Shown: positions 1-48,488 of the stretch, in pieces
How the letters are laid out: each line of letters opens with the position of its first letter
How positions within the stretch are numbered: the first letter of the stretch is position 1
From: Candidatus Omnitrophota bacterium
GTDB taxonomy: Bacteria; Omnitrophota; Gorgyraeia; Pluralincolimonadales; Pluralincolimonadaceae
Assembly (NCBI GenBank): GCA_041651455.1
Contig: JBAZJG010000003.1
Coordinates: 83,793 to 147,792 of the forward strand
Direction of reading: 5' to 3'
Length of the DNA: 64,000 nucleotides
Program-made: the position numbers and the translations under genes
The notes under the pieces: generated by a model
What the model was told of the DNA's origin: nothing
Database searches by the model: none
The model's input: the letters and a program-made list of their open reading frames with translations, nothing else

Positions 1-225
1 AGCGTCGCGGGCGACGTCTACCTGCAGGATTTCTCGAATACGAACTCGATCTTCGGTGTCAGGAGGGATGACCAGACATATACGCTGTCATCGATGCTCG
101 GGTATAACTTTTGGAAGGAAGCAGAGCTCCAATTCAGATATACATACGTAAAGGACCATTCAAATATAACGGTATACGATTATGACAGGAGCATTTACAG
201 CCTCGGCATCGAGTACAAATTTTAA
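1..225 (+). CDS. Outer-membrane beta-barrel protein, C-terminal fragment; the 5' end is outside the window.
   Basis: Open frame 1 runs to TAA at 223–225. The translation ends ...YSLGIEYKF, with alternating hydrophobic/aromatic residues and a terminal Phe typical of OMP beta-barrels. Confidence 0.45.
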   Translation, partial: SVAGDVYLQDFSNTNSIFGVRRDDQTYTLSSMLGYNFWKEAELQFRYTYVKDHSNITVYDYDRSIYSLGIEYKF

Positions 226-242
226 CAAAGGAGATACCTGAA

Positions 243-6200: not shown

Positions 6201-6926
6201 GCCTTAGGAGGCGTAGTGCCTGACGATACGTATGACGACAGCTACCTGCTGTTTTCCGCGAAAGGCACCAGCAGTATCTGGGATTTTAAGAACGGGGATG
6301 TCAGGGAAGGAGATGTCGACGGTTCGTTCAGGGGCGTATACCTTGCGCCGGAGCACTGGGACAGCGAGACGGAGCGCTACACGGCTATGAATATAGGCCG
6401 CGTCGAAGGCGATATCTCAGGCTTCTATGAAGCGGGCGTAGATACGACCATCCAGGCCGCGTTCGTCGGCGAATGGGTAGACCTCGCCGAGCTTGACACA
6501 AGCATGATCGGATTCGATAATGTCGTGCTTGCGGAGATGGTAAGCGTCCCGATCACCGAAACCTATTCGGCCCTGCTTCAGGGTAACGGAGCGTTCGGCG
6601 CCGCGGGCGCGATCACCGGTAATATGGACATAAGCTTCTACGCGCAGAACGCACTCGACCTGAACGGAATATGGGCGGCGCTCTTCAACGGAAGCTATTC
6701 AGGATACACCGGCGGAAACGACTGGAACATAAACTACAGCAACGATGCCGGCGTTAACGCGACGTTGACAGGAACGCAGTGGAGCGAAGGCCAGTGGATG
6801 GCCAACGTTTCAGGGACCGCTCCCGGTGACGTCAACTTCAACGGACAGGCCGGCGGCACCTACACGGGCACCGAAACGGGCACGTTCGAAGGCGCAGGCG
6901 CCGGAACCTGGAATACCGGAAATTGA
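243..6926 (+). CDS. Giant secreted protein (2227 aa) with an N-terminal signal peptide and two tandem FecR-like domains. A long acidic Gly/Tyr/Asp/Asn/Trp-rich body is made of degenerate ~300–400 aa repeat modules.
   Basis: AAGGAG RBS about 8 nt upstream of the ATG. Signal peptide MKDRNIKIIALAALIIFGSSAAFASG. FecR-like blocks (…TPNAKGSVKGTDVVVV…, …KTPNAVACVRGTVLF…). Recurring YIDP[SD]G.AG and [DY]WGI[WYF] motifs. Confidence 0.85.
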   Translation: MKDRNIKIIALAALIIFGSSAAFASGIGTITSLEGSVDLFKAGSESPSAAALGSEIETGDSVRTKSASKAEITFADKSVVRLAEKTKLDISDYRTGDDGKRINAVLNVERGKIRAIISKSAAKDSFTINTPNAKGSVKGTDVVVVFQKSSTAVAVLNGRYSLSNPASPEKKVEIKGGEVSVVAADNEPSSPRLMLASEKKSHEADTSVSRSAVASSDNTDNLPVAEGYSQAGEMKAVIIKLAGNVRIKSKDSKTWHDAKLNETVRTGDSIETKANGKAEFKIENGNIITLQQNSNVTISRLSRDGKGEYENLFESTGGKIRAQVEKLKGNSKFEVKTPNAVACVRGTVLFLNILPNLTNAYFEEGNGVLRSIISGTTQNVPMGTGSTVDGNGNISNPLPPSDDQKSGWHEGWEFGGEAEGYSGPEGYTGGGTGDNENPDNGANNVFSDKPFTDIIGPGEGGDTGDGGGDGTVVAPVTMNGTIEGDFGYEGVSENNFFSLALSSTTPLGEQWSGTISVNATGTYDNPYYRVFIGNVEGKGVNGGVFYGWSGGVMHSWDTVVSSIYIDPSGMAGNLFGVLSGSNTVNEMDGYYWGDMAGNGDLYVIPMAQLEPDVEYGTVEGWGYGNLNFAFDNGNGYVETGFDRQMAKIEGQDWGIWREAHYGGYSNPNGLTNWSAVAGGDYNDGYFFSLAEGTDNLNGAVRFDISGSYLDSSHLGAYYGTILAHAGEGIEGTGAGGFVEQELSSSTELFNCAYSPYRYEYEYGDYDYDGYGGFDHAGHIGGLAGTVGDLWGEGGFYLVSIGEMEEDEAGSLNDFVWMTDFSSDDNGDEDIREYDGEGQEGAYYGLSSVTGKDGVMKGSARILYIDPDGYAGVKSGKVEGAYSSLAGAYMFDGDFDNDLNITPVIAGISAEDLSESIWSEESDGRLEGDYSGEGFIGGQDELYTASIVDYKNHTSYDWGIYSQRLTGEYELPAVTNGIFSAKMGGNDSFGCYNPGLSVNGQYQLNDGGYYYYQYNDNNSYGYTSEYHYVDNTQQYSNTNYYDDGSTHTYSYSYDNNGNLLGGTSGYGTWDTSVPLAELIGSAPEDASYLSYEDSYVTAENDYGYWIADVNGQGEGWFNGSLNGVFLTGTRMGTISGDIDGTYYDDGTWMGSGSGTWNGKRLAFSGYWGENESSLYTDDPEGYISWAGEERGLMGSTEEDWWDNKSFTARAIGGFWYDYDDGVPKLWNTEIESNNVEKNNNTTLDGGAYYGFTTGIWKNGLMSDGRVIAIFAAPDGRVGIMRGGAEGGYYEGIDLWQASMDLSTEMVEGYSYTPEGLRNDINEEYIGDMGVGGSFAGNGTIYGNIDEAYSYSLPDMPWGIFNVKMGGWFEKDDGNIAENGLALGKNEEGYGERLLITARNVVYDDNTISADVAGAFIDLEEGMIGRINGDLRGTATDQYYYDGGEYYNYTSWAGAAIGEWKKEPLAYSGIMMDGAFGYVEDYYGGFDVDYGYMDGVFGGSGNIWQGPADLTIIGGFWNPDYNEDRVPDYKLWASDFYIITDDNAVAYGTMGGTSLDNRLKGLLLSLYIRETDEGNRAGYIMSVDDAGNYDYFNGDFYPSIGMYGAEGKLAYFLDMPTDYDPTVLLSGSGEALDSDDIYGVVGGDIEGTLDGETLGFVDQDWGIWRAASSGVFNNPPENTWSAVMGDVEDDYDGFYSTYTLAFIDGTSWEDGGFSADIAGRVLSNRSLTTFNGKMLGAYDTEYNEWEALSLGVAQSEYLTLSGSSSGGIGYYGEGFINDGITYGNMGSTVQEWWANGPFDVVAMGEYEGYLDRGSYIVGSKVNSFNGYDGSNTTDDGEGAFWGWTVGTSRNGRLPNMYTAALFISPGEDGNQAGILRGSMNGNTFAMPNEYLDYGDDMEVGLWQADGTLTPTVMMNYIPMGAADFVDSIEIDSDAFTACGKGVINGNPLEAQISQASIANIEAYDTWGIVNGIMFAQSNAVVTDGVWQTALGGVVPDDTYDDSYLLFSAKGTSSIWDFKNGDVREGDVDGSFRGVYLAPEHWDSETERYTAMNIGRVEGDISGFYEAGVDTTIQAAFVGEWVDLAELDTSMIGFDNVVLAEMVSVPITETYSALLQGNGAFGAAGAITGNMDISFYAQNALDLNGIWAALFNGSYSGYTGGNDWNINYSNDAGVNATLTGTQWSEGQWMANVSGTAPGDVNFNGQAGGTYTGTETGTFEGAGAGTWNTGN

Positions 6927-6928
6927 TC

Positions 6929-7213
6929 ATGCGATATGTATTCGCATTAGTATTAGCGCTGTTGATAACAGGATGCGGGAGGCCGGCTGAAAAGCCGGCT
7001 TCCGCAGTTTCGGAGGGAAGGATCATCGCCACAGTTAACGGAGAGCCGATATTCGACAAGGACCTGAAGCTCTCGCTCGCACTGAAGCTGAAGGATGACC
7101 CCTCGATGCAGATAAAGCCCTCTACCATGAGCGAACAGCTGCAGACGCTTATAGACGAACGCCTTAAGCTGCAAAGCAAGACACGCGAGAATTCCGAGAT
7201 AGTGATCAAATAA
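6929..7213 (+). CDS. Small lipoprotein with a SurA-N-domain-like segment; possibly a truncated chaperone remnant.
   Basis: MRYVFALVLALLITGCGR has a lipobox (LITGC). …RIIATVNGEPIFDKDL… resembles the SurA/PpiD N-terminus. The track ORF begins at a TTG at 6923, but an in-frame ATG at 6929 is more likely. It overlaps the stop of the giant gene. Confidence 0.45.
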   Translation: MRYVFALVLALLITGCGRPAEKPASAVSEGRIIATVNGEPIFDKDLKLSLALKLKDDPSMQIKPSTMSEQLQTLIDERLKLQSKTRENSEIVIK

Positions 7214-7313
7214 ATTTCTTTCCAGGATATTTCCCGCCAGTAATATGAATTGACTATGCTTCTACTCTGTGATAAACTCCTATTTTATTCAGCCAAAATA
7301 AAGGGGTTATGAC

Positions 7314-8492
7314 GTGAAACAGCCTGACATTAAGGGCCATTTTGGCGTCTTTGGAGGCAAATATGTACCAGAGACGCTGATGACTGCGCTCGAAGAGCTC
7401 GAGGGCGCCTATAAGGCCGCAAAAAAAGACAAAAAATTCTCCGAACAGTTCCGCTATTACCTTGAGGAGTACGCCGGAAGGCCGAGTAACCTTTATCGCG
7501 CCGGAAGGCTCAGCGATTTCCTGAAAGGCCCGAAGATCTACCTTAAAAGGGAAGACCTTCTTCATACGGGTTCCCATAAGATCAATAACACGCTGGGCCA
7601 GGGGCTGCTTACCGTAAGGATGGGCAAGAAGAGGATCATCGCCGAGACAGGTGCGGGACAGCACGGTGTTGCCACGGCGACAGTCGCGGCGCTTTTCGGC
7701 CTCGAATGCGAGGTCTTCATGGGCGAGGAGGATGTGCGCCGGCAATCATTGAACGTTTTCAGGATGAAATTGCTCGGCGCGAAGGTGACCCCGGTCACGA
7801 GCGGCAGCAAGACCCTTAAGGACGCCATGAACGAGACGATGAGGGACTGGGTCACGAACGTCCGCAACACACATTACTGCATAGGTTCGGTCGCGGGCCC
7901 GCACCCTTTTCCGATGATGGTAAGGGATTTCCAGTCCGTAATAGGTGCGGAGGCCAGGAAACAGATACTTAAGGCGGAACGCAGGCTGCCGGACTATCTT
8001 ATCGCCTGCGTCGGCGGCGGATCGAATTCCATGGGCCTGTTCTACAGGTTCCTCGACGATAAAAGCGTAAAGTTCATCGGCGTGGAAGCGGCGGGAAAGG
8101 GGCTTTCTACCGGGATGCACGCCGCGACGCTAGAAAAAGGCGATATAGGGGTCCTGCACGGGAGTAAGAGCTACCTGCTGCAGGATGAAGCGGGCCAGGT
8201 AAAGATTGCGCACTCCGTCTCCGCCGGGCTCGATTACCCGGGAGTAGGGCCTGAGCACGCTTATTTCAAGGAAACGGGCAGGGCGAGATACGTATCCGTG
8301 ACCGACAAGGAAGCATTGGGGGCCTTCCGTATGTTATCTGAGACCGAAGGTATAATACCCGCCCTCGAATCATCCCATGCGATCGCGTACCTTGCGAAGA
8401 TATCGAAGAAACTCAGGAAGAGCGATATCGTGGTCGTATGCCTTTCCGGAAGAGGCGACAAGGACGTGGACATGGTCTCGCGGATACTATAA
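7314..8492 (+). CDS. trpB: Tryptophan synthase beta chain.
   Basis: PLP-lysine motif …HTGSHKINN…, GGGSN motif and full-length homology pattern (392 aa). GTG start preceded by AAAGGGG. Confidence 0.95.
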
Positions 8493-8499
8493 GAATAAT

Positions 8500-9294
8500 A
8501 TGAACAGAATAGACAAAAAATTCAGGGAACTTAAAAAGCTAAAACAGAAGGCGCTGATAGCCTTCTTCACCGCAGGCGATTACGGCCTGGCGAACACAAA
8601 GAAACTCGTCCTCGAGTTCGCATCACGCGGTGTGGACATTATAGAGCTCGGTGTCCCATTCTCCGACCCCGTAGCGGACGGCCCGACAATACAGATATCG
8701 TCCGAAAGGGCCCTCAAGAGAGGCACCAAACTCAAGGATATAATCGCCGCCGTAAAGGAACTCAGGAAATATACCGAAGTACCGATAGTTCTCATGGGTT
8801 ATTATAACCCTATATTGAAATACGGAGTAAGCAGGTTTGTGTCCGATTGCTCTAAGAGCGGGATCGACGGCGTCATTATACCCGACCTGCCTCCGGAAGA
8901 GTCGGGCGAGCTCATCGGACCGTCGAGGGAGAAGGGGTTCGCAACCATATTCCTGCTGAGCCCGACAAGTACCGCAAAGAGGATAAAGCTCGTCTCGGGA
9001 AGATCGAGGGGATTCATCTATTATGTCTCTCTGACCGGGATAACCGGCGCCAGGTCGTCATTACCCGCGGAGCTTGCGCAAAGGGTAAATCTTATCAAGA
9101 GGCATTCTAAGCTGCCGGTATGCGTAGGTTTCGGTGTATCGAGCCCCGGACAGGTCAGGCAGGTATGCCGCGCGGCCGACGGGGTAATAGTCGGTTCTGC
9201 GATAGTCAAGGAGATTGAGAGGAATTCCGGGAAAAAGCAGTTCATACGCAAAGTAGGCGAATATGTGCAAAAACTGACGGAGGCGGCCCATTAA
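8500..9294 (+). CDS. trpA: Tryptophan synthase alpha chain.
   Basis: Starts at M42 of the track ORF (MNRIDKKFRELK…), 8 nt after the trpB stop. TIM-barrel TrpA pattern (…GVPFSDPVADGPTIQ…, …YVSLTGITG…). Confidence 0.9.
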   Translation: MNRIDKKFRELKKLKQKALIAFFTAGDYGLANTKKLVLEFASRGVDIIELGVPFSDPVADGPTIQISSERALKRGTKLKDIIAAVKELRKYTEVPIVLMGYYNPILKYGVSRFVSDCSKSGIDGVIIPDLPPEESGELIGPSREKGFATIFLLSPTSTAKRIKLVSGRSRGFIYYVSLTGITGARSSLPAELAQRVNLIKRHSKLPVCVGFGVSSPGQVRQVCRAADGVIVGSAIVKEIERNSGKKQFIRKVGEYVQKLTEAAH

Positions 9295-33926: not shown

Positions 33927-35318
33927 ATGAAGAAGTTTTTATTGGTAATAGGTTTGGTGATTGCAGCTATATGTATATATATCCTTAGCATCATATTCGC
34001 GCCGGTACCTTCACTCGATAGCTCTTTAAGTAAATTGAAGGCGCAAGGAATACCTACTACGCTTGAGGAATTAATACCTTTCGAACTTCCTGATTCCGAG
34101 AACGGCGCATTGATATACAAAGAAGCTTTTAGAATATTAGATACTTTTGAGCAAAAATACAGTGTTGGCGAAAAGCATTCCAGGAAATACAAGGATGACT
34201 GGAAATATCTGATAGGCAGAGAAGAATATTTGAATGCCCCTGCAGATAAGAAAAAGGAGATAGGTCAAATAGTTATGAACGATCCTGACCTTAATAAAAT
34301 ATATAGCCTTGTTAATAAAGCGAGCCGAATGAAATGCCAATTCCATAAGAGAGCCGAATATAAAAAAGGATTCGTAATGGAAACGGGGGAATTCGGCCAG
34401 GCCAGAAATTGCGCGAGATTATTGTCGGTGAAAGCCTGCATCGAATCTGAACTAAAATTACACGATGAAGCAGTGAATAGTTCTTCCCTGATATTGAGAA
34501 TTTCTTCTTCTTTTGAAAATGAACCCAGTATAATTGCTCAACTTGTAAGGGAAGCAATATGTCTTATTGGTTTAGATACATTAAGAAGTAATGATGCTGT
34601 TTTCGATGCAAAAGATGCTATCAACGAAAATTGTCTCGATGTATTATCAAAAACGAATAATAGAAGCGCCGTGGAAAACGGTTTTAAAGGTGAACCTATT
34701 TTGGCATATTATACATGCGCCGACCTTCTGAATAACAGCAAGGCTAATCAATTCGATTCGCTCAAGGCTATTGGAATTCTCGCGGAAAAGCCATCATTAT
34801 ACTCAATCCATTTTTATCTTTTGGGCTGTTTTAATCCTAGAAAGCTAATAAACGAACAAATGATATATTATTTTGACGAAATGTCTAAAGCATACGTTGT
34901 CCTGAAAATGCCTTATCATGAAGGTAGTATAATATTGAAGGACTTGATTGATAAAATGGCATCTGGGCGCGGCAAAGAAATGATTCTTGTAAATTTAATA
35001 TATCCTGGAGTCGATAGATACTATACAAGAAGTGAGGAAATAGGCGCCTATATCGATATTGCTTCCTTAGGCGTCGCTAATAGGTTGTATAAGTCAAAAC
35101 ACGGCAGATTTGCCGATTCTCTTGGCCAATTGTCGCCCGGAATATTACCATCGGTCCCTAAAGACCCGTTCTCGGGAAATGATTACGTATACAAAAAAGA
35201 AGGGGACGGTTTCATCATCTACAGCCTCGGAAAGAACATGAAGGATGATAACGGCAAATTCGAGAAAATGGGCACGAAAGGCGATTTTGATATTTCGTGG
35301 CGGGACTCAGGTAAATAA
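33927..35318 (+). CDS. Low-GC hypothetical membrane-anchored protein with a pseudopilin (GspG)-like C-terminal tail but no prepilin leader.
   Basis: Single N-terminal TM helix (MKKFLLVIGLVIAAICIYILSIIFA) without the G/F-T-L-x-E prepilin motif. C-terminus …PKDPFSGNDYVYKKEGDGFIIYSLGKNMKDDNGKFEKMGTKGDFDISW matches the T2SS major pseudopilin C-terminal pattern. GC is visibly lower than in the neighbours. Confidence 0.6.
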   Translation: MKKFLLVIGLVIAAICIYILSIIFAPVPSLDSSLSKLKAQGIPTTLEELIPFELPDSENGALIYKEAFRILDTFEQKYSVGEKHSRKYKDDWKYLIGREEYLNAPADKKKEIGQIVMNDPDLNKIYSLVNKASRMKCQFHKRAEYKKGFVMETGEFGQARNCARLLSVKACIESELKLHDEAVNSSSLILRISSSFENEPSIIAQLVREAICLIGLDTLRSNDAVFDAKDAINENCLDVLSKTNNRSAVENGFKGEPILAYYTCADLLNNSKANQFDSLKAIGILAEKPSLYSIHFYLLGCFNPRKLINEQMIYYFDEMSKAYVVLKMPYHEGSIILKDLIDKMASGRGKEMILVNLIYPGVDRYYTRSEEIGAYIDIASLGVANRLYKSKHGRFADSLGQLSPGILPSVPKDPFSGNDYVYKKEGDGFIIYSLGKNMKDDNGKFEKMGTKGDFDISWRDSGK

Positions 35319-36040: not shown

Positions 36041-36766
36041 ATGCTTTTAACCGCGGACATCGGAAACACGAGCACCGCTTTCGGGATATTTAAGGGCAAA
36101 AAACTCATCAGGTCATGGAAGGTCTCGACAGGCCATGTCGTATCCGGCAAGCCGATCAAATTGCCTGATGGTATCGGGCGAGTGATAATATCCAGCGTCG
36201 TCCCGAAAGCGACGCCTATCGTCAATAGGGCGATATCCCGAAAATACGGGACCAAACCTCTTATCCTCGGGAAGAATATCAAAGCGCCGATAAAAAATCT
36301 CTACAAGAAGCCGAAACAGGTGGGGCAGGACCGTCTCGTTGATGCATTCGCTGTAAAAGAGCTTTACGGTTATCCCGCGATAGTCGTAGATTTCGGGACC
36401 GCGATAACGTTCGACGTCATATCCAAAAAGGGCGAGTACCTCGGCGGACTGATATTCCCCGGGATAGAGACATCCCTTAACGCGCTTTCGGAAAAGGCCG
36501 CATTACTTCCTAAGATAACTGTCGTGCCGCCGAAGGGATTGATCGGACGCGACACCGCCGACAGCATGAGAAGCGGCGTCTTCCATGGCATCGGGGCCCT
36601 ATGCGACGGCGTCATCTCACGTTTAAGGGAGAAGCTCGGCCCAATGACCGTAATAGCAACAGGCGGCCACGCGAAGGTCATCTCGAAATTCACAGGTTCG
36701 ATCCGTAATGTCGATATCTGTTTGACATTGAAGGGGCTTAACCTGATCGCTGGGAGGTATAAATGA
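36041..36766 (+). CDS. coaX: Type III pantothenate kinase.
   Basis: MLLTADIGNTSTAFGIF (ASKHA phosphate-1 DxGNT), …VDFGTAIT… and …IATGG…. The true start is M7 of the track ORF, with a GAAGGGA RBS. Confidence 0.85.
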   Translation: MLLTADIGNTSTAFGIFKGKKLIRSWKVSTGHVVSGKPIKLPDGIGRVIISSVVPKATPIVNRAISRKYGTKPLILGKNIKAPIKNLYKKPKQVGQDRLVDAFAVKELYGYPAIVVDFGTAITFDVISKKGEYLGGLIFPGIETSLNALSEKAALLPKITVVPPKGLIGRDTADSMRSGVFHGIGALCDGVISRLREKLGPMTVIATGGHAKVISKFTGSIRNVDICLTLKGLNLIAGRYK

Positions 36767-37326
36767 ATTCCGGAAAGATGCCGGCATTGTTATTTATCTA
36801 TATGCTTATTATGTGGGCCGTAAGCATCAGTTTATTGCTTGTTTCGTTCTTAAACGGATTCAGGCCGGCGGATTTCAAGCCATTATCTTTTCTATTGATG
36901 CCCGTATTGGTATTAACCATACTCTTAGGGATAATCTATGATATCGCTGTGCTTATATTGCATCTGTTCAATAAGCGGACTCCGGAATATCCGCTTGCCG
37001 TGTTCTTCCCGTTTATCCTCATCATTCTAGTTTTCACCATGCCAATATTAAATTACTTCGGACAGGAGACAGCAATATCATTTGCGGGCAGGAAGGCGCT
37101 TATAAATGACGCCGATAAATTAATGTCAAATGCGGGTAGAGATATTGTAGAACTTCCGGAAAAAGAATACCCGGACAGCTTCAGGAGATTAGGTGCTTTT
37201 CGCGTCTTTTTCAACGATTCATCGGTCGAATTAACACTTGATGGGTGGGTATCAAAGAAGTACGGCATAACTATATCTTCGAGTAATAAAGGCCCCGAAC
37301 GTATATCCAGGTTCGAACGTAATTAA
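36763..37326 (+). CDS. Hypothetical small membrane protein (low GC).
   Basis: Three predicted TM segments in the first 100 aa and no recognisable domain. ATGA-coupled to the coaX stop. AT-rich codon usage. Confidence 0.5.
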   Translation: MNSGKMPALLFIYMLIMWAVSISLLLVSFLNGFRPADFKPLSFLLMPVLVLTILLGIIYDIAVLILHLFNKRTPEYPLAVFFPFILIILVFTMPILNYFGQETAISFAGRKALINDADKLMSNAGRDIVELPEKEYPDSFRRLGAFRVFFNDSSVELTLDGWVSKKYGITISSSNKGPERISRFERN

Positions 37327-37423: not shown

Positions 37424-39366
<1,943 letters not shown>

Positions 39367-39390
39367 ACCCAAATCCAAGGAGGAAAATAA

Positions 39391-39678
39391 ATGAACCTTA
39401 AGCCATTAGGCGACAAAGTGATCGTGGAAGTATTGAGCGCCGAAGAGAAGACAAAGGGCGGCATCATACTCCCGGACACCGCGAAGGAGAAACCGCAGGA
39501 AGCGAAGGTCATAGCCGTCGGATCGGGCAAGGTGCTCGATAACGGCAAGACGGTCGCTCCCGATGTGAAGGCCGGAGACATAGTCATTTTCGGGAAATAT
39601 TCCGGAAGCGAGGTCAAGGTCGAAGAAAAAGAGTACTTAATTATAGACTCGGATGACATCTTGGCAATAGTTAAATAA
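39391..39678 (+). CDS. groES: Co-chaperonin GroES (copy 2, divergent paralogue downstream of groEL).
   Basis: 95 aa, about 60 % identical to copy 1 ([13 protein letters not shown]…[25 protein letters not shown]…). AAGGAGG RBS. Confidence 0.9.
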
Positions 39679-39689
39679 TAAGTACTTTT

Positions 39690-39741
39690 AACACAATAGT
39701 GCCCCTTGGCTCCGCGGTCAGGGGGCATTTTACTTTGTGTT
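39690..39741 (+). terminator. Imperfect GC-cored hairpin followed by a T-rich tract; candidate intrinsic terminator of the groESL-groES operon.
   Basis: Arms aacacaa…gtgcccc and gggggca…ttgtgtt enclose a 15-nt loop, then ttttactttgtgtt. It marks the boundary to the low-GC island. Confidence 0.35.
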
Positions 39742-39856
39742 AATCAAAGTGAATAGTGGCATAAATTTCGTTAAGGATGTGTAGATAACTAAGAGCATGA
39801 ATCTGCATATTATATGTTGCGATGAAAGAAAAACCAAGCAATAACCTGGAGTACTC

Positions 39857-41887
39857 GTGAATAAGATAGACCTACATATACACACAATTCCTACAGTGAG
39901 CGACTCCCCCTTCAGCTTCAAACTCGCCACATTACGGAGATACGTCGTTGAAGCAGCTTTGGATGCCATTGCCATAACGAACCACAATGTATTTGACCGC
40001 AGTCAGTTCACAGCAATTGACAACGAACTGGATGTTGTTGTCTTCCCCGGGATAGAAGTTACCCTCGACTGCGGGCACATTCTCATAATCAGTGACATAG
40101 CCAAGCTGAACCAGTTCGAGAAACAGGCTCAGCAACTTCACAGCCGCATTACCCAAGCTCATGACAGCATCACTATTGATGAGCTTACAAAAATCTTCCA
40201 TAATTTAGAGGAGTACCTGGTCATTCCACATTATGATAAGAAACCAGCAATCAAAGACGATGCTCTGAAACGCATGGCGAAATACGTATCGGCTGGTGAG
40301 GTGGATAGCGCCAAGAAATTCATCCGTGCAATCAAGGACGACGCAAAAGTTACACCGGTCCTTTTCAGCGACATTCGAATCGGCGATACACTCGATAACA
40401 TTCCTACTAGACAGACCTTTGTTGACTGCGGCGAGGTTACGTTGGCTGCCCTCAAGAAATGCCTGCAAGACAAAGGGAAGGTTGCCCTGTCTGAAGCCCA
40501 TGGGAATAGCCTTTTCCAGATTTTTGACGACGGCCAGAAGTTATCTACAGGACTCAACATCCTTCTAGGTGAGAGATCGTCAGGGAAAACATACACCCTA
40601 GATAAAATCAATGCATCGCATGACCAAGTAAAATACATCAAACAGTTCTCGTTGGTGCAACAAGATGAAGTCGCGTGTGAACGCGAATTCAGCCGAGATC
40701 TCCAGAGAACCAGGAGCCAATTTATCGAAGAATACCTATCAAGGTTCAAGATTGTTCTAAATGATGTTATGAATGTCGACCTGTATTCTGATGATCGAGA
40801 AGTTGACAATTACATCCTTAATCTTCATGAGGCTGCGGAGGAAGCAGACAGGAGAGACGCCTTCTCAAATTGCGCACTATTTGATGAATCGGAGTTTTCG
40901 ATTAGCGATGATAAGGTACTGATTGAGTTGATAGCATCAATTAGGCAGATAATACAGAATGTTGAATACCAACCAATCATTAATAAATATGTGGACCGTC
41001 AGTCGCTCAAGCAGCTTGCAGTAGAACTAATTGAATTGCTCTGGGCAAGAGGACGTGAATGGAAGAAGAAGACTATAGTAAACGAGATGGTACTTGAGAT
41101 TCGGCAGGCGCTGAAGAGACGCACGTCTACGGTTCAGGTTCCCGACGTAAATCTCTACCGCGTGAGCTTAAACAAAAAAAAGGTTGAAACATTCTCCGAG
41201 ATTGTAAAATGTCTCCAAGAACATGCAGTAATCTCAGAGGAACCTATCCAGAGGTTCCGGGTTATTGCGACAAAGGATCCCTTCGCGGGAGCAGGCGAGA
41301 TTAAATCTATAAGTGGGGTAAAGACGACATTCCGTGAATCGTTTGCGGAATACGCACACCCCTATAAGTATCTACAGGCGTTGCTATCCAATGATGATTT
41401 GACTCGCTCAGAAATATACAAGTATTTTGTGAAGATAACCTACAGTATTCTAAACCCGGATGGATTCGAAGTATCTGGTGGTGAGCGATCAGAGTTTAGG
41501 CTACTTCAAGCGATCAAGGATGCACAAAACTATGACATTCTACTGGTCGATGAACCAGAGTCCTCCTTCGACAACCTATTTCTCCGGAGCGATGTCAACA
41601 AAATCATCAAAGAGATTTCGGAGACGATGCCAGTAGTTGTGGTTACTCACAACAGCACTGTGGGTGCGTCGGTTGGTGCCGATTATCTCCTGTATGCAAG
41701 GAAGGAGATAGAGGAAGGCAAAGTAGTCTACAGATTGTACTCTGGCTATCCAACGGACCTAACTCTTCACTCCCTCGACGGCAAAGCGATCAGCAACTAT
41801 CAGATCACAATGAATTCACTTGAGGCGGGCTGCGAAGCCTACGATAACAGGAGGAATGGATATGAAGCTATTAGAGATAAGGGATAA
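39857..41887 (+). CDS. Fusion protein with an N-terminal PHP-family phosphoesterase domain and a C-terminal ABC/SMC-type (OLD/AAA_15-21-like) ATPase; candidate defence nuclease-ATPase.
   Basis: PHP His motifs (IDLHIHT, AITNHN, IPHYD) in the first ~200 aa. Walker A LLGERSSGKTY, ABC signature-like SGGERSE, Walker B ILLVDEPESSFD, and H-loop VVVTHN. GTG start. Markedly lower GC and AT-rich third codon positions. Confidence 0.8.
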   Translation: MNKIDLHIHTIPTVSDSPFSFKLATLRRYVVEAALDAIAITNHNVFDRSQFTAIDNELDVVVFPGIEVTLDCGHILIISDIAKLNQFEKQAQQLHSRITQAHDSITIDELTKIFHNLEEYLVIPHYDKKPAIKDDALKRMAKYVSAGEVDSAKKFIRAIKDDAKVTPVLFSDIRIGDTLDNIPTRQTFVDCGEVTLAALKKCLQDKGKVALSEAHGNSLFQIFDDGQKLSTGLNILLGERSSGKTYTLDKINASHDQVKYIKQFSLVQQDEVACEREFSRDLQRTRSQFIEEYLSRFKIVLNDVMNVDLYSDDREVDNYILNLHEAAEEADRRDAFSNCALFDESEFSISDDKVLIELIASIRQIIQNVEYQPIINKYVDRQSLKQLAVELIELLWARGREWKKKTIVNEMVLEIRQALKRRTSTVQVPDVNLYRVSLNKKKVETFSEIVKCLQEHAVISEEPIQRFRVIATKDPFAGAGEIKSISGVKTTFRESFAEYAHPYKYLQALLSNDDLTRSEIYKYFVKITYSILNPDGFEVSGGERSEFRLLQAIKDAQNYDILLVDEPESSFDNLFLRSDVNKIIKEISETMPVVVVTHNSTVGASVGADYLLYARKEIEEGKVVYRLYSGYPTDLTLHSLDGKAISNYQITMNSLEAGCEAYDNRRNGYEAIRDKG

Positions 41888-42155
41888 TCTTGGATATTAT
41901 CTTGATGCCAACAACGCATTCGTTCTAATTGACAAGATCACCAAGGAAGATCTTCTCAGGCTGGTAGACCAGACGCTTAACAAAGATGTTGAGTTTGACG
42001 AGTACAACGATGAGGCCGTCAAGAATCAAGCTCATCAGATTCTCTATAAAAGTATATTTGAGAAGTTACAGGACTTGAAAGTGCGCAGAAAAGAGTTCAC
42101 TGATGAGTCCAAACGACTATATTTGCAGGAGCACGAGTGGTATCGAAAGAAATAG
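41862..42155 (+). CDS. Small acidic helical protein (~97 aa) translationally coupled to the PHP-ATPase gene. Function unknown.
   Basis: AGGAGG RBS lies inside the 3' end of the upstream gene, 7 nt before the ATG at 41862. It overlaps the upstream stop by about 26 nt. The track ORF starts at an upstream TTG at 41820. No recognisable domain. Same low-GC composition. Confidence 0.55.
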   Translation: MKLLEIRDNLGYYLDANNAFVLIDKITKEDLLRLVDQTLNKDVEFDEYNDEAVKNQAHQILYKSIFEKLQDLKVRRKEFTDESKRLYLQEHEWYRKK

Positions 42156-42238
42156 TCACAGAAAGGAACGGAAGGCGATGCGATAAGCTACGCGCCTTAG
42201 CACCTGCGTTGGCGACCCTTCTAAATATGGGGATTTCC

Positions 42239-42267
42239 TTGACTTTTTAACCCGGTTTTTGTATCAT
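42239..42267 (+). promoter_or_regulatory. Sigma-70-type promoter upstream of the IMPDH-like/guaA pair.
   Basis: TTGACT, a 17-nt spacer, then TATCAT, about 30 nt upstream of the AAGGAGG RBS of the 42299 gene. Confidence 0.4.
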
Positions 42268-42298
42268 AATTGTCTAAATTCAAGGAGGTTCCGGAAAC

Positions 42299-43459
42299 AT
42301 GGGTGAATATATAGGTATCGGAAGGAAGGCCCGCCGTTGCTACGGTTTTGATGAGATCGCGCTTGCCCCGGGAAGAGTCACGATAAACCCCGCAGAAGTA
42401 GATACAAGCTGGAAAATAGACGGAAAGAAATTCAATGTGCCCATACTTGCCGCCGCCATGGACGGCGTCGTTGACGTCAAGTTCGCGATAGCGATGGGAA
42501 AGGTCGGAGGCGTGGCGGTGCTCAACCTCGAAGGCGTCCAGACCAGATATGAGGACCCGGACGAGGTCCTCGAGCAGCTTGTCAGGGCCGACCCCGAGAA
42601 GGCCACCGAGATAATCCAGTCGATATACACGAAACCCATACAGGAAAAGCTCGTAGAGAAGAGGATCCGCCAGATAAAAGATGCCGACGTACCCGCGGTA
42701 GTCAGCGCGATACCGCAGCGCGCGGAGAGGTTCGGCAAGATAGCGCAGGACGCAGGCGCGGACATCTTCGTCATACAATCCACGGTCAGCACCGTTAAGC
42801 ATCTTTCTAAGGAATACAAGGCCCTCGACATAAAGAAATTCTGCAAGTCGGTCAAGATACCCGTCATCGTAGGCAATTGCGTCGGATATGATGTCGCGAT
42901 GGACCTCATGAACAGCGGAGCGTCCGCGATACTCGTAGGCATCGGCCCCGGCGCCGCATGTACGACAAGAGGCGTACTCGGCATCGGCGTACCGCAGGTC
43001 ACCGCGACGGTCGACTGCGCGGCAGCACGCGACGTGTTCTTCAAGAAGACAAAGAAATATATCCCTATCATAACGGACGGCGGAATGAGGGCCGGCGGCG
43101 ACATCTGCAAGGCGTTCGCCTGCGGCTCGGATGCCGTAATGGTAGGTTCGGCATTCGCGAGGGCGGTGGAAGCGCCCGGCCGCGGTTACCACTGGGGGAT
43201 GGCCACGCCCCATGCGAACCTCCCGCGCGGTACAAGGATACATGTAGGCACTACCGGGACGCTCGAGGAGATACTCTTCGGGCCCGCCAGGTTCGACGAC
43301 GGCTCGCAGAACCTCATGGGCGCGCTGCAGACATCTATGGGTTCGGTCGGCGCAAAGGACATCAAGGAATTCCAGAAGACAGAGATCATAATAGCTCCGT
43401 CCATAAGGACCGAGGGAAAGATATTCCAGCAGGTCCAAAGAGTGGGAATGGGCAAATAA
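42299..43459 (+). CDS. guaB: IMP dehydrogenase family protein lacking the CBS/Bateman subdomain (GuaB3-like short form).
   Basis: Catalytic Cys loop [11 protein letters not shown], phosphate-binding …[25 protein letters not shown]…, and N-terminal …[11 protein letters not shown]…. Only a ~60 aa linker where the CBS pair would be. Immediately upstream of guaA. Confidence 0.7.
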
Positions 43460-43463
43460 AATA

Positions 43464-45008
43464 ATGTTGCAGCAAGAAGTTGTGCTTGTCCTGGACTTCG
43501 GCTCGCAGTATAACCAGCTGATAGCTCGCCGTGTTAGGGAGAACAGGGTGTTCTCAAAGATCGTCCCTCACAATATCACGGCGGCTGAGATACGCAGGCT
43601 GGCGCCTAAAGGCATCATACTTTCGGGCGGGCCGGCCTCGATCTACGGAAGCAAATCGCCAAAACCAAAGAAAGAGATCTTCGAGCTCGGTATACCTGTG
43701 CTCGGAATATGTTACGGCATGCAGGCTATGTCGTATATGCTCGGCGGCAAGGTGACCAGGGCTAATAAGCGCGAATACGGCCACGCCGAACTGCTTATAG
43801 ACGATTCCTCGGGCCTCTTTTCCGATGTTGAAGATAAGTCCATCTGCTGGATGAGCCACGGCGATTACGTATCGCAGCTGCCTCCCGGTTTCAAAAAGAT
43901 AGCGCACACATCAAATACAGAATTCGCCTCCATCGCCGATACCGAGCGCGGGCTATACGGGGTCCAATTCCATCCGGAGGTCGCCCACACGCCTAAAGGC
44001 GGCAAGATGATATCAAATTTTCTTTTCAAGATATGCCGTTGTGAAGGCAAATGGACCGCGCAATCATTCATCGAGGACACGGTCCGCGCCATAAGGGACA
44101 CTGTAGGAAAAGAAAGGGTCGTATGCGGCCTCTCGGGCGGGGTGGACTCATCCGTGGCAGCCGTATTGCTCCACAAGGCAATAGGCAAACAGCTCATATG
44201 CATATTCATAAATAACGGCGTGCTGAGGAAAGGCGAGGCGGAACGCGTAATCAAGACGTTCAAGAAGCATTTCCACATGAACCTCAGGTACGTAAACGCC
44301 GAAGCAAGGTTCCTCAGGAAGCTCAAAGGTGTCGCCGACCCGGAGAAGAAGCGAAAGATAATAGGGCATGAGTTCATACGCGTCTTCGAAGAGGAAGCAA
44401 AAAAACTCGGAAAGATAGCGTTCCTTGCGCAAGGGACGCTTTATCCGGATGTAATAGAATCGAAGTCCGCGTTCGGCGGGCCGTCCGCGACCATAAAATC
44501 GCACCATAATGTGGGCGGATTACCGCTGAAGATGAAGCTCAAGTTGGTCGAACCGCTGCGCGAGCTTTTCAAAGATGAAGTCAGGATAGTGGGCAAGGCG
44601 ATGGGTCTCTCTGACGAGATAACCCTGCGCCAGCCGTTCCCCGGGCCGGGGCTCGCGATAAGGGTCATCGGCGACATAACCAAGGAACGTCTCGACATAT
44701 TAAGGGAGTCGGACGTTGCGGTTATAGAAGAGATCAAGAAGGCCGGATTTTACAGGGAGGTCTGGCAATCGTTCGCGGTGCTGCTGCCGATAAAGACCGT
44801 CGGCGTCATGGGCGACGAAAGGACATATGAGAACGTCATAGCGCTGCGCGCAGTCACGAGCGCGGACGGCATGACGGCCGACTGGGCGAAGCTTCCATAC
44901 GACCTTTTGGGCAAGATCTCTAACAGGATAATCAACGAGGTTAGGGGCGTCAACAGGGTAGTATACGACATAAGCTCCAAACCTCCTTCCACCATAGAGT
45001 GGGAATAG
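43464..45008 (+). CDS. guaA: GMP synthase (glutamine-hydrolysing).
   Basis: Class-I GATase (…GICYGMQ… Cys, His…Glu), the ATP-PPase P-loop SGGVDSSV, and C-terminal dimerisation domain. 514 aa. Confidence 0.95.
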
Positions 45009-45044
45009 ATCTAGTTACGGGTTTCAGGTTGGGGGATATTAATT

Positions 45045-48000
45045 ATGCAGCATTCGCATTTTGTCCACCTGCATGTCCATACGCAATTCAGCCTTCTTGA
45101 CGGTGCCTGCAAGATACCGGAAGTCATAGCGCTCGCGAAAGAATACAGGATGCCTGCGGTAGCACTTACCGACCACGGCAACATGTTCGGCGCGATAGAA
45201 TTCTATATCGAGGCGATGAAGAACGGCATAAAGCCGATCATCGGATGCGAGATATACGTCGCCCCGGGCTCCCGGCTGGACAAGTCCGCCTCCGTAAACG
45301 AGGAATCAGCATACCACCTTATCCTGCTGTCGAAGGACGAGGAGGGTTACAGGAACCTGATGAAGCTCGTCTCCGCCGGATACCTTGAAGGATTCTATTA
45401 CAAGCCGCGCGTTGACAAGGAACTCCTGGCCAGGTATTCAAAAGGACTGATCGCGCAGTCGGCGTGCCTGCAGGGAGAGATACCATACCTTATCGTTAAA
45501 GGAAAATACGAAGAGGCAAAGGTCGTCGCGGGCCAATATAAGGACATATTCGGGCCGGGCAATTTCTATCTCGAGCTCCAGAAAAACCTCATACCGGAGC
45601 AGGAAACGGCGAACGCCGGACTGCTGAAGATCTCAAAGGAGCTCGACATACCGCTTGTTGCCACCGGCGACGTGCATTACCTGCGCAAGAGGTCCTCGCG
45701 CGCCCACGAAGGCCTGCTCTGCATACAGACCCAGACGACACTGAGCGACCCGGACCATATGAGGTTCTCTACCGATGAGTTCTATTTCAAGTCGTCGGAG
45801 GAGTTCAAGGAGCTCTTTTCGGACGTCCCGCAGGCGATATCCAATACAATAGAGATCGCTGAGAAATGCAACCTGGAGCTTGATTTCAACAAGACGCACC
45901 TGCCGCAGTTCACCCCGCCAGAAGGCAAATCCCGCGAGGAGTACCTTAAGGACCTTGTAGAAGAAGGGATGAAGAAACGTTACGCGCAGGTCGACAAAAT
46001 CATACGCGACAGGGTGGACCACGAGCTGAATATCATCAGGAAGACCGGGTTCACGAGCTATTTCCTTATCGCGTGGGATTTCATCAATTACGCCAAGTCC
46101 AAAGGAATACCCGTCGGCCCCGGAAGGGGATCCGCCGCAGGCAGCGTAGTCAGCTACTCGCTCGGCATTACCGACCTCGATCCGATAAAGTATGACCTGA
46201 TATTCGAGCGGTTCCTTAATCCCGACCGCGTAAGCCTTCCCGATATCGACATAGATTTCTGTTACGAGAGAAGGGGCGAGGTCATAGATTATGTGACCCA
46301 GAAATATTCCAAGGAGAACGTCGCCCAGGTCATTACGTTCGGCACCATGAAAGCGCGCGCGGTCATTAGGGACGTCGGTCGCGTCATGGGCATAAGCTAC
46401 GGCGATGTCGACCGCATCGCGAAGCTCGTGCCCGAAGAGCTCGGCATCACCCTCGAAAAAGCGCTGAAGGTGGAGCCGGAGCTCCGCAACATGTACAAGA
46501 GCGACCCCCAGATGAGGCAGCTCATTGACATCTCTACCGAACTCGAGGGCCTTAACCGCCACGCATCGACCCATGCGGCCGGCGTCGTAATATCCGACCT
46601 TCCGCTCACCGACTATGTCCCTCTGTTCAAAACGAGCGAGGGCCAGCTTTCAACCGGCTACGAAATGAAGTCGCTCGAGAAGATCGGCCTGCTGAAGATG
46701 GACTTTCTCGGCCTCAGAACCCTCACAGTCATCGATGAGACCGTCAAGATCATAAAAAGGACGAAGGGCCTTGCGCTGGACATAAACAATATACCGCTCG
46801 ATGACAAGAAAACCTACGACCTGCTGTCCAACTCGGAATCCCTCGGTATATTCCAGCTTGAAAGTTCGGGCATGCGCGACATACTCCGCAAACTTAAGCC
46901 GACGACGTTCGAGGATATCATAGCCATATTGGCACTTTACCGCCCGGGCCCGATAGGCAGCGGCATGGTCGAGGACTTCATCAAGAGGAAGCACGGCGAG
47001 ATACCCATCAAGTACGACCACAGGATGCTCGAGCCGATACTGAAGGAAACCTACGGGACCATAATCTACCAGGAGCAGGTCATGCGCATCGCCTCGTCGC
47101 TTGCGGGGTTCTCGATGTCACAGGCCGATTCGCTCAGGCGCGCTATGGGAAAGAAGATCCCGGAGGAGATGGAGCAGGCGCGCTCGAACTTCCTGAACGG
47201 CGCTTCCAAGAACGGGATAGACAAGCGCACGGCCGAGAAGATATTCAATCTCATAGAATATTTCGCCGGATACGGTTTCAACAAATCACACTCGACCGCA
47301 TACGCGCTCATATCATACAGGACGGCTTACCTGAAAGCGAATTATCCCGTAGAGTTCATGAGCGCACTGATGACGTCTGAGCGCGATAATATAGATAAAG
47401 TCGCGTTCTATATAGAAGAATCCCAGAGGATGTCGATCCAGATACTGCCGCCGAGCATAAACGAAAGCTTCTCGAAGTTCACGGTAGTTGGCAATTCGAT
47501 CAGGTTCGGGCTCAGCGCGGTCAAGAACGTCGGCCAGGGCGCGATAGATTCGATCGTCAACGCGAGGGGCGCGTCCGGCAAGTTCAAGAATCTTTATGAC
47601 TTCTGCGAACGCGTAGACCTCAGGCTCGCGAACAGGAAGGTGCTGGAAAGCCTGATAAAGTGCGGCGCATTCGACGAATTCGCCCTGCACAGGTCGCAGC
47701 TTACGGTCATGCTGGACGACTGCCTTGAGTGCGGCGCGAACTCGCACAGGGAGCGCGCAAGCGGTCAATCGACGTTCTTCGAGGAGTTCGGCACGCATTC
47801 TAAGGCTCATGCTTCGCACAGGCACGAGACCCCCAAGATACCGGAATGGCCAGAAAGCCAGCTGCTCGCCTATGAAAAGGAGATGCTCGGTTTCTATGTG
47901 ACCGGCCATCCGCTGGCGAGATACGAGAAGCTTATTCGCTCTTATTCCACATGTTCGGTCAAGGACCTCGCCAAGAGAAGGTCGGATGAAGAGATCAATC

Positions 48001-48488
48001 TCGGCGGCATCATCTCGAAGCTGAAATTCACGATCACGAAAGCCAAAAGCGAGAAGATGGCGATCATGAGCATAGAGGATCTTACAGGCGAGGTGGAAGT
48101 CCTTGTATTCCCGAAGGCGTTCGCGAATACCGAGAGATACATAAAGAAAGACGCCATCGTATGCGTTAAGGGCAAGATCAACCTCAGGGAGGACAGGCCT
48201 AAGATAATGGCCAACGACATAATCCCCCTCGACGAGATACAGAAGAAATATACCCAGGCGATAATCATCAGCCTCGACGCGGGCATAGGGGAGGATTCCA
48301 TGAACAGGCTCAAGTCGGTCCTTGAATCCCATCCGGGGACTGCTCCGGTGTACCTGCATTTCAAGATGGCCGACGGGAAGAGGTTCGAGATATCAGTCGA
48401 AGACAAATTGAAGGTTGAACCCTCCGACAGCCTGACATCCGATATAGAGAAGCTTCTGGGCGACGGCGTGGTAACATTCAAGACTTGA
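45045..48488 (+). CDS. dnaE: DNA polymerase III alpha subunit.
   Basis: N-terminal PHP domain (HLHVHTQFSLLDGA), palm/fingers motifs, OB fold and C-terminal domain. 1147 aa. Confidence 0.95.
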   Translation: MQHSHFVHLHVHTQFSLLDGACKIPEVIALAKEYRMPAVALTDHGNMFGAIEFYIEAMKNGIKPIIGCEIYVAPGSRLDKSASVNEESAYHLILLSKDEEGYRNLMKLVSAGYLEGFYYKPRVDKELLARYSKGLIAQSACLQGEIPYLIVKGKYEEAKVVAGQYKDIFGPGNFYLELQKNLIPEQETANAGLLKISKELDIPLVATGDVHYLRKRSSRAHEGLLCIQTQTTLSDPDHMRFSTDEFYFKSSEEFKELFSDVPQAISNTIEIAEKCNLELDFNKTHLPQFTPPEGKSREEYLKDLVEEGMKKRYAQVDKIIRDRVDHELNIIRKTGFTSYFLIAWDFINYAKSKGIPVGPGRGSAAGSVVSYSLGITDLDPIKYDLIFERFLNPDRVSLPDIDIDFCYERRGEVIDYVTQKYSKENVAQVITFGTMKARAVIRDVGRVMGISYGDVDRIAKLVPEELGITLEKALKVEPELRNMYKSDPQMRQLIDISTELEGLNRHASTHAAGVVISDLPLTDYVPLFKTSEGQLSTGYEMKSLEKIGLLKMDFLGLRTLTVIDETVKIIKRTKGLALDINNIPLDDKKTYDLLSNSESLGIFQLESSGMRDILRKLKPTTFEDIIAILALYRPGPIGSGMVEDFIKRKHGEIPIKYDHRMLEPILKETYGTIIYQEQVMRIASSLAGFSMSQADSLRRAMGKKIPEEMEQARSNFLNGASKNGIDKRTAEKIFNLIEYFAGYGFNKSHSTAYALISYRTAYLKANYPVEFMSALMTSERDNIDKVAFYIEESQRMSIQILPPSINESFSKFTVVGNSIRFGLSAVKNVGQGAIDSIVNARGASGKFKNLYDFCERVDLRLANRKVLESLIKCGAFDEFALHRSQLTVMLDDCLECGANSHRERASGQSTFFEEFGTHSKAHASHRHETPKIPEWPESQLLAYEKEMLGFYVTGHPLARYEKLIRSYSTCSVKDLAKRRSDEEINLGGIISKLKFTITKAKSEKMAIMSIEDLTGEVEVLVFPKAFANTERYIKKDAIVCVKGKINLREDRPKIMANDIIPLDEIQKKYTQAIIISLDAGIGEDSMNRLKSVLESHPGTAPVYLHFKMADGKRFEISVEDKLKVEPSDSLTSDIEKLLGDGVVTFKT

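Follow-up and report, generated by a model that had tools for sequence, protein, structure and literature searches.

The 64,000-nucleotide stretch of a Candidatus Omnitrophota genome considered here (contig JBAZJG010000003.1 of assembly GCA_041651455.1, positions 83,793–147,792 of the forward strand; referred to below as the window) carries a short block of low GC content between a groESL chaperonin operon and an operon that begins with an IMPDH-like gene. The block contains two overlapping genes, A and B, whose products belong to the two protein families of a catalogued candidate phage defence system, PDC-M49. Protein A is a PHP phosphoesterase fused to an ATPase of the ABC type, and protein B is its small partner. 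The elements of the block are listed below in window coordinates.

39742–39856, plus strand: AT-rich leader 5′ of A, with GGAG at 39848–39851, 5 nucleotides before the GTG start codon
39857–41887, plus strand: gene A, 676 amino acids, GTG start, PDC-M49A family, encoding the PHP phosphoesterase fused to an SMC/Rad50-like ABC ATPase
39857–40501, plus strand: PHP domain of A (about residues 1–215), recognised by its conserved ligands and by NCBIfam and Foldseek matches
40568–40591, plus strand: Walker A motif or P-loop of A, G238-x-R-S-x-G-K-T245, with G238, R240, S241, G243, K244 and T245 invariant
40667–41221, plus strand: helical insertion between the two ATPase lobes of A (about residues 271–455), with helices predicted at mixed confidence for residues 271–293, 295–305, 309–336, 353–419 and 433–453
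41474–41554, plus strand: ABC signature S540-G-G-E-R544 and Walker B residues D565-E566 of A, placed by invariant columns, by alignment with the PstB nucleotide-binding domain and by hhalign to TrlF
41570–41572, plus strand: D-loop residue D572 of A, an invariant column
41648–41650, plus strand: H-loop residue H598 of A, an invariant column
41862–42155, plus strand: gene B, 97 amino acids, ATG start, the small partner of the PDC-M49B family

The last 26 nucleotides of A are shared with the start of B on the same strand, and B is preceded by GGAGG 7 nucleotides before its ATG (41850–41854, within A), a layout that reads as classic translational coupling. B lies directly 3′ of A and overlaps it, in the same order, in all 15 A-family loci that were fetched; it is an obligate, translationally coupled 97-residue partner of A. 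A scan of the leader (39742–39856) found no sigma70-like match on the plus strand, and an Rfam scan of 39300–42600 gave no real RNA element, its sole match being mir-769 with an E-value (E) of 0.38.

Both proteins match the PADLOC models of PDC-M49 over their full length. Residues 1–673 of A align with positions 1–673 of the 674 positions of PDLC04680 (PDC-M49A; E 1.9e-292, 969.9 bits), and A also matches PDLC04678 (E 5e-100) and PDLC04679. B covers positions 1–95 of the 97 positions of PDLC04682 (PDC-M49B; E 2.1e-32, 110 bits) and also matches PDLC04683 (E 4.6e-16). Gene order, strand and overlap are identical to those of the catalogued arrangement (A then B, adjacent, on the same strand and overlapping), and nothing structural sets the window copy apart. 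Judged by these profile matches, A–B is an ordinary copy of PDC-M49. It differs from the catalogued system in its setting, being placed outside any restriction-modification (R-M), BREX or DISARM operon and alone between housekeeping operons of an uncultivated bacterium. General annotation is less telling: the identical protein in NCBI (P0001), from a Candidatus Omnitrophota metagenome-assembled genome, is named “phosphotransferase”, and in Pfam A has only sub-threshold matches to SMC_N, AAA_21 and ABC_tran, of which SMC_N (RecF/RecN/SMC) is the best.

PDC stands for “phage defence candidate”, a set that comes from Payne et al. 2024 (bioRxiv 10.1101/2024.01.29.577857) and is included in PADLOC-DB v2, PDC-M49 being its multi-gene candidate number 49. 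The authors gathered genes embedded within BREX, DISARM and type I R-M operons and arrived at 145 curated candidate systems (10.1101/2024.01.29.577857); in their supplement the cassettes FAM_00021>>FAM_01695 and FAM_00021>>FAM_02682 carry the entry “Assign as candidate PDC-M49” (10.1101/2024.01.29.577857). An earlier description of this locus, made from the DNA letters without database searches (the sequence-only reading), had proposed a candidate anti-phage defence module, a label that is justified by the PADLOC entry for exactly this pair, PDC-M49. The same description took the two-gene form to be new, and here it was mistaken: PADLOC-DB v2 and Payne et al. 2024 already contain the pair.

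Protein A consists of an N-terminal PHP metal-dependent phosphoesterase and an SMC/Rad50-type ABC ATPase, the lobes of which are split by a helical arm of ~185 residues. In an alignment of 51 A sequences, the PHP ligands H7, H9, H43, E67, H74, H125 and D172 are invariant or nearly so. The final canonical PHP histidine appears, judged by motif position only, to be replaced by an arginine, R174, which is itself invariant. The ABC set is complete and invariant in the same alignment (Walker A, Q263/Q268, signature, Walker B, D-loop and H-loop), and mean column identity across phyla is 72 %. Residues 4–103 match the NCBIfam CehA/McbA metallohydrolase (PHP) model. Foldseek matches of the PHP part include TM0559 (2anu, E 1e-6), RNase AM (7ug9), PsfC and the PHP domains of PolC/PolIII-alpha, with a probability of 1.00 for 2anu, 7ug9 and 3f2c. 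The remainder of A matches SMC-type heads (RecN, JetC, MukB, SMC1A and Rad50). The PHP domain is the sole confident part of the AlphaFold2 model, with predicted local distance difference test scores (pLDDT) of 82–94 at residues 1–120. The helical insertion, as modelled, is presumably a short coiled-coil arm, and it has no zinc hook, as there is no CxxC motif anywhere in A.

Protein B, unlike A, resembles nothing that informs on its function. Its AlphaFold2 model (pLDDT 91) shows a three-stranded sheet, a helix and a C-terminal helix of 40 residues. The best Foldseek match has an E of 0.68, a profile search of the Protein Data Bank gave chance matches only, and Pfam Tad5 is matched below threshold (E 0.018); no informative structural or sequence relative and no recognised fold emerged from these searches. 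The family is nevertheless well populated, with 328 B homologues.

A known relative of A is Ppl (Gao et al. 2020), a single gene that encodes ATPase and PHP domains and impairs plaquing of phage T7, by a mechanism that is uncharacterised (PMC11482910). The sequence-only reading had named Ppl as a single-gene system that combines PHP and ATPase domains; this was accurate (PMC11482910) and gave a good lead. Its framing of A–B as a variant of Ppl does not hold. A has no match to the PADLOC Ppl model at E<=1, seven other A-family members have none at E<=1e-3, A is ~200 residues shorter, and it is always accompanied by B. The two are better described as sister families, and the link runs through TrlF. 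A matches the TrlF model (NCBIfam NF045780) with 68.5 bits (E 5e-19) at model positions 6–489 of 944, without reaching the cutoff of 350 bits. Conversely, annotated TrlF proteins from an Escherichia coli IncC plasmid and a Yersinia plasmid have Ppl as their best PADLOC match (E 2.5e-35) and PDC-M49A as the second (E 6e-17 to 2e-20). In hhalign, residues 489–673 of A align with residues 692–877 of TrlF (probability 92 %, E 5.6e-7), and the alignment includes a C-terminal tail beyond the generic ABC core. The cross-match and the common tail together make PDC-M49A a shorter sister family of Ppl/TrlF.

Ppl, TrlF and A have the same domain order, namely an N-terminal PHP domain, an ABC-type ATPase and a C-terminal tail with the motif LEAG/MEGG..Y/F..RR..Y. 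TrlF, too, has an overlapping downstream partner and can sit within a type I R-M operon. A is ~200–270 residues shorter than these proteins, and the partners differ: Ppl is a single-gene system, whereas A occurs with B at 15 of 15 loci, and the partner of TrlF is TrlG (AlbA_2 and HATPase_c_4 domains), which was found only in L096 and L097, the two plasmid loci that carry TrlF. The partner of A is the 97-residue B. The TrlF–TrlG genes lie at 2727–6514 of L096 (E. coli IncC plasmid pNDM-EcoGN568) and 2922–6676 of L097 (a Yersinia ruckeri plasmid). On pNDM-EcoGN568 they are part of a type I R-M operon with the order hsdR, TrlF, TrlG, hsdS, AAA and hsdM, and TrlG matches models of pAgo-associated proteins.

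Beyond this group, the similarities of A are to broad classes of machines. Among PADLOC models, AbiLi (E 8e-4) and AriA (E 0.024) are matched marginally, and there are further weak matches to the defence ATPases AriA, GajA, PtuA, HEC and mad3; those to the Gabija, PARIS, Septu and HEC models have E of 1e-3 to 1e-8, far below family level. Like Gabija (GajA), PARIS (AriA/AriB), Septu (PtuA/PtuB) and HEC-01/02, A couples an ABC-type ATPase to a nuclease-type effector, a design in which the state of the ATPase gates the nuclease. In Gabija, PARIS and Septu the effector is a Toprim or HNH domain, whereas in A it is a PHP domain fused at the N-terminus; moreover, A–B has no GajB, AriB or PtuB, and B is small, has no recognised fold and is neither a helicase nor a nuclease. 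With Mre11–Rad50/SbcCD, RecN and Wadjet JetC, A shares a head split by a helical insertion and the pairing of a metal-dependent phosphoesterase with an ATPase. The phosphoesterase of Mre11–Rad50/SbcCD is calcineurin-like, while that of A has the PHP fold and is fused in cis. The arm of A (~185 residues, no CxxC hook) also contrasts with the long antiparallel coiled coil and zinc hook of those complexes.

The base composition of the block is clearly foreign to its surroundings. Windowed GC is 0.40–0.47 within the A–B block and 0.53–0.61 in the flanks. GC at third codon positions (GC3) is 0.498 in A and 0.510 in B, which corresponds to z-scores of −5.4 and −5.0 relative to the 40 other genes of the window (mean 0.694, standard deviation 0.036, minimum 0.621). 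The log-likelihood of synonymous codons gives z-scores of −4.7 for A and −3.3 for B. Low GC is not unique to the block within the window, as two upstream open reading frames (ORFs) are even more deviant. In composition, the ORF at 33927–35318 (plus strand, 463 amino acids) deviates more than any other in the window (GC 0.38, GC3 0.375, z −8.8); it has no Pfam or PADLOC match and is probably another foreign gene. The ORF at 36763–37326 (plus strand, 187 amino acids, hydrophobic; GC3 0.473, z −6.1), likewise without Pfam or PADLOC matches, occupies the interval from coaX to groES1, which in related Omnitrophota measures only ~170–220 bp.

The flanking genes and the boundaries of the block are as follows.

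37424–37711: groES1, upstream flank
37735–39366: groEL, upstream flank
39391–39678: groES2, upstream flank
39698–39729, plus strand: terminator-like hairpin after groES2 with a 14-bp stem, found by scanning; left boundary of the insertion
42239–42267, plus strand: sigma70-like match TTGACT-17-TATCAT before the IMPDH-like gene, found by scanning; right boundary of the insertion
42299–43459: IMPDH-like gene lacking CBS domains, downstream flank, followed by guaA and dnaE (the three genes span 42299–48488)

The terminator and promoter calls are consensus matches only. Both are retained in the nearest relative, L003, in which the spacer between B and the promoter is ~220 bp longer than in the window. 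The chaperonin operon with two Cpn10 genes (groES1–groEL–groES2, 37424–39678) is also present in L015, L017, L019 and L037, and in several though not all Omnitrophota. A second contig, L001 (ENA ERZ27247363 k141_2956219, positions 1–9100, compared with window 37718–39117), is ~100 % identical to the window from ~38.92 kb, within groEL, through dnaE. The 5′ two-thirds of groEL are just 68–76 % identical, and further upstream the two sequences are unrelated. The upstream part of L001 is 7.8 kb of phage-like DNA with 40 % GC, which encodes its own double-Cpn10 protein (235 amino acids), a GroEL, a fused Metallophos and AAA_23/SMC protein (987 amino acids) and a PDDEXK gene. Either L001 is a chimera that arose in assembly, where groEL is conserved, or the chaperonin is truly recombinant or virus-borne.

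The history of the site was followed by mapping the window proteins onto 80 loci, each encoding a relative of the IMPDH-like protein. The gene order coaX–groES–groEL(–groES2)–IMPDH–guaA–dnaE is widespread in Omnitrophota. In 12 related genomes the site is empty, groES2 or groEL being followed, after 100–350 bp, by the IMPDH-like gene (L010, L015, L016, L017, L023, L026, L030, L035, L037, L042, L070 and L086). A–B occupies the junction only in L003/L004, where the flanking proteins are 91–97 % identical to those of the window, A 86 % and B 82 %. The next relative, L019 (flanks 75–89 % identical), has an unrelated membrane protein at the junction. Since GC3 of A–B is equally low in L003, the composition has not been ameliorated. 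The composition of the block, the 12 empty sites and the presence of homologues in unrelated phyla (63–75 % identical) and on plasmids (~40 %) establish that A–B was acquired horizontally; its insertion 3′ of groES2, before the IMPDH-like gene, took place in a recent ancestor of the lineage.

Relative to L003, the ratio of nonsynonymous to synonymous substitution rates (dN/dS) amounts to 0.16 in A, 0.13 in B and 0.02–0.06 in the flanking genes. Both genes are thus under purifying selection that is looser than that on housekeeping genes. In the same comparison (window 39857–42155 against L003 1833–4131) dS is 0.42 for A and 0.59 for B, 0.72–1.11 for the IMPDH-like gene, guaA and dnaE, and 0.49 for groES2. 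Differences in codon bias could account for the lower dS of A–B, as could an exchange of the cassette at a later time between the lineages of the window and L003.

Most of what the sequence-only reading said of the block has thus withstood closer analysis: its low GC and GC3 (z about −5), its position between the hairpin after groES2 and the promoter of the IMPDH-like gene, the PHP–ABC ATPase fusion with a translationally coupled small ORF (motifs, Foldseek matches and the 26-nucleotide overlap agree), the absence of an integrase or transposase, none being found in the window, and its foreign origin. It had proposed that related genomes be inspected for groES directly followed by the IMPDH-like gene, and the 12 empty sites, with groES or groEL in that position, are just this. 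GC3 of A and B does not resemble that of the flanks, and the pair is not conserved at this position in the manner of housekeeping genes. The description of the locus as a defence island, in contrast, is not borne out, there being no other defence gene nearby and only ordinary cargo at the same junction in other Omnitrophota. Overall, the foreign block and the candidate defence module stand, and the new variant does not.

The gap between groEL/groES2 and the IMPDH-like gene holds other cargo in L012, L013, L019, L021, L022, L028, L032, L034, L039, L061, L080 and L088, including a MoxR–DUF58–membrane protein operon in L013, L021 and L034. A defence hotspot was considered and ruled out: the cargo in 13 other Omnitrophota is ordinary (MoxR–DUF58, TPR/glycosyltransferase-like membrane proteins, response regulators and a pilin-like protein). 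The junction is recurrently variable and has no defence-hotspot character.

The family as a whole is large and mobile. More than 1,900 A homologues are present in a database clustered at 90 %. The best 120 align with A over the entire length at 63–86 % identity, and the lineages they represent are very diverse, TA06 and Waddliaceae among them. An exhaustive profile search yielded 278 A clusters (50 % identity) at E<=1e-30, nearly all of 670–690 residues. A-family genes of ~40 % identity are carried by 56 plasmids, mostly of Enterococcus and Staphylococcus, and 48 of these plasmids are conjugative or mobilizable. A phage origin was rejected, as tblastn found no match in 50,697 phage records and there was no meaningful PHROG match. 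Swapping of the effector domain was also considered and rejected: the N-termini of P0297, P0373, P0382 and P0388 differ from that of A, but these proteins seem to be fused or fragmentary, with a ParA domain, an ABC-2 membrane piece or nothing in its place, and they provide no sign of modularity.

The neighbourhoods of about a dozen homologous loci were inspected. On a Rhizobium plasmid, A–B is found with IS3, DUF5677, DUF4238 and AbiH, and on an E. faecalis plasmid with resolvases, DUF4062, RelE/ParE and Abi. An integrative conjugative element (ICE) carries it together with TraG, a relaxase, a ThsB-like TIR protein and an integrase. L094 has DUF4062 nearby, and L095 has HicA, PDC-S68, T5orf172 and an MmeI-type R-M system. 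Plain housekeeping contexts were seen in the window, L003, L005, L006, L008, L090 and L093. A patchy and mobile distribution, often beside known defence genes, is typical of defence genes, and the A–B family displays the same pattern in this sample of about a dozen loci. Three distant A–B loci have a small ORF (66–120 amino acids) close to the 5′ end of the pair (L005 7733–7933, L008 7739–7942 and L092 7039–7401); in L008 and L092 its product contains an HTH_17 domain. Such an ORF may encode a regulator; none like it is present in the window.

Given its membership of PDC-M49, its homology to Ppl/TrlF and the defence-like neighbourhoods seen elsewhere, phage defence is the likeliest role of A–B, with a probability of roughly 60 %. 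What the data show is which family the pair belongs to, how its proteins are built, how well they are conserved and that they were acquired; a part in phage defence, the substrate and the function of B are inferred. ATPases of the SMC/Rad50/ABC type dimerise around ATP sandwiched between their heads. A would dimerise in the same way, through ATP held between its ABC heads, while the long C-terminal helix of B may dock on the arm or neck of A and gate the ATPase cycle. Recognition of an invading nucleic acid or a phage protein would then license the PHP domain to hydrolyse phosphodiester bonds, as suggested by the analogy to Gabija, PARIS, Septu and Mre11–Rad50. The target could be phage DNA or, in an abortive-infection mode, nucleic acid of the host. 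The overall logic would be that of a single-chain Mre11–Rad50 or of an ATPase–nuclease of the Gabija/PARIS type.

Several observations weigh against a role in defence or against this mechanism. The mean pLDDT of the AlphaFold2 model of A is 65.8, and it falls below 50 in several segments of the ATPase core, so the SMC-like assignment rests on weak structural matches and the sub-threshold SMC_N match. PHP domains also serve as phosphatases, in addition to nucleases. For a defence gene, A is conserved to an unusual degree in the cross-phylum alignment. Roughly one in two of the homologue neighbourhoods sampled is of a plain housekeeping kind (L005, L006, L008, L090 and L093), other Omnitrophota have ordinary cargo at this junction, and the window itself contains no other defence gene, mobility gene or island structure. 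In Payne et al. 2024, all 145 PDC systems, PDC-M49 included, are called “untested” (10.1101/2024.01.29.577857). Our literature search found no paper text that names PDC-M49 and no later test of it, nor a paper that combines the terms “PHP domain”, “ABC ATPase” and “anti-phage”.

A more specific and tentative proposal is that PDC-M49 is a distinct immune or anti-plasmid machine, in which A would act as a single-chain analogue of Mre11–Rad50, with a PHP nuclease joined to an SMC-like ATPase head, and B, with a new fold, would gate it by clamping the coiled-coil neck like a mini-kleisin. Although we consider this version improbable as it stands, it would put the conservation of A in a different light. 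If true, the high cross-phylum conservation would mean that the machine recognises something invariant in invading DNA, and not a phage protein that evolves fast.

Improbable, too, is a selfish addiction cassette similar to toxin–antitoxin pairs, in which A would be a toxic ATP-dependent phosphoesterase and B its neutraliser, and the pair would be kept on plasmids, ICEs and chromosomes, without protecting from phages, because its loss is costly. A big enzyme tightly coupled to a small overlapping partner at 15 of 15 loci would suit such a cassette, as would its frequent occurrence on conjugative or mobilizable plasmids with resolvases and transposases alongside, its isolation in the window as a two-gene insert without other defence genes, and the purifying selection on both genes. 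However, B has no recognisable antitoxin or DNA-binding fold and is encoded 3′ of the putative toxin, whereas the antitoxin comes first in most type II systems, and A, an ABC ATPase with an arm, is much larger and more complex than typical toxins. Furthermore, the family was first found within R-M, BREX or DISARM operons (Payne et al. 2024), and its relative Ppl restricts phage (PMC11482910). The addiction reading overlaps in part with defence by abortive infection.

An accessory role in DNA repair or end processing is unlikely. Here A–B would be a compact analogue of Mre11–Rad50/SbcCD or RecN in which a PHP nuclease replaces Mre11 in genome maintenance. The best Pfam match, sub-threshold SMC_N, and the Foldseek matches to RecN, Rad50, MukB and cohesin heads point in this direction, as do the proofreading activity of PHP domains in PolX, PolC and DnaE, the high sequence conservation and the several housekeeping contexts, two of which are near dnaE (the window and L006). 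A maintenance function is difficult to reconcile, however, with the sporadic distribution of the pair, most Omnitrophota with the same synteny being without it, or with its foreign composition and its presence on plasmids and ICEs next to Abi, TIR and PDC-S68 genes. The helical insertion also has no CxxC zinc hook, and dN/dS of the pair is 3–8 times that of the flanking housekeeping genes.

There is little to recommend the idea that A–B is a conditional growth-control or stress locus like the temperature-restriction locus (TRL) of Photorhabdus, which holds TrlF. Distant homology does link A to TrlF (NCBIfam E 5e-19; hhalign E 5.6e-7), and the TRL operon is responsible for a growth restriction at 36 °C (10.1101/2020.06.02.129163). 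Yet all mutations in that study were in trlG and none in trlF (10.1101/2020.06.02.129163), TrlG is absent from A–B loci, and A scores 68 bits against a TrlF cutoff of 350. Besides, TrlF–TrlG lies within a type I R-M operon and matches Ppl, so the TRL temperature-restriction phenotype may itself be autoimmunity of a Ppl-type defence system. Finally, that the block is not foreign at all, but an ordinary lineage-specific pair with low GC due to amino-acid composition or expression level, is scarcely credible: it is in line with the occupation of the same site in L003/L004 at comparable nucleotide divergence, the other low-GC ORFs of the window and the failure to find mobility genes or, in the flanks of the block, a target-site duplication, terminal repeat or notable direct or inverted repeats, but GC3, which is independent of amino-acid composition, lies 5 standard deviations below that of the other genes and is equally low in L003, 12 sites are empty and L019 carries different cargo, and close homologues reside in other phyla and on plasmids.

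The A–B locus brings no new kind of system to light, and the pair would be flagged whenever PADLOC is run on this genome. What it provides is a clean natural example of a catalogued candidate: the insertion is datable and has matching empty sites, both genes are under purifying selection, and the partner is obligate. Together with the placement of PDC-M49 as a sister family of Ppl/TrlF, these properties make A–B a reasonable target for validation.

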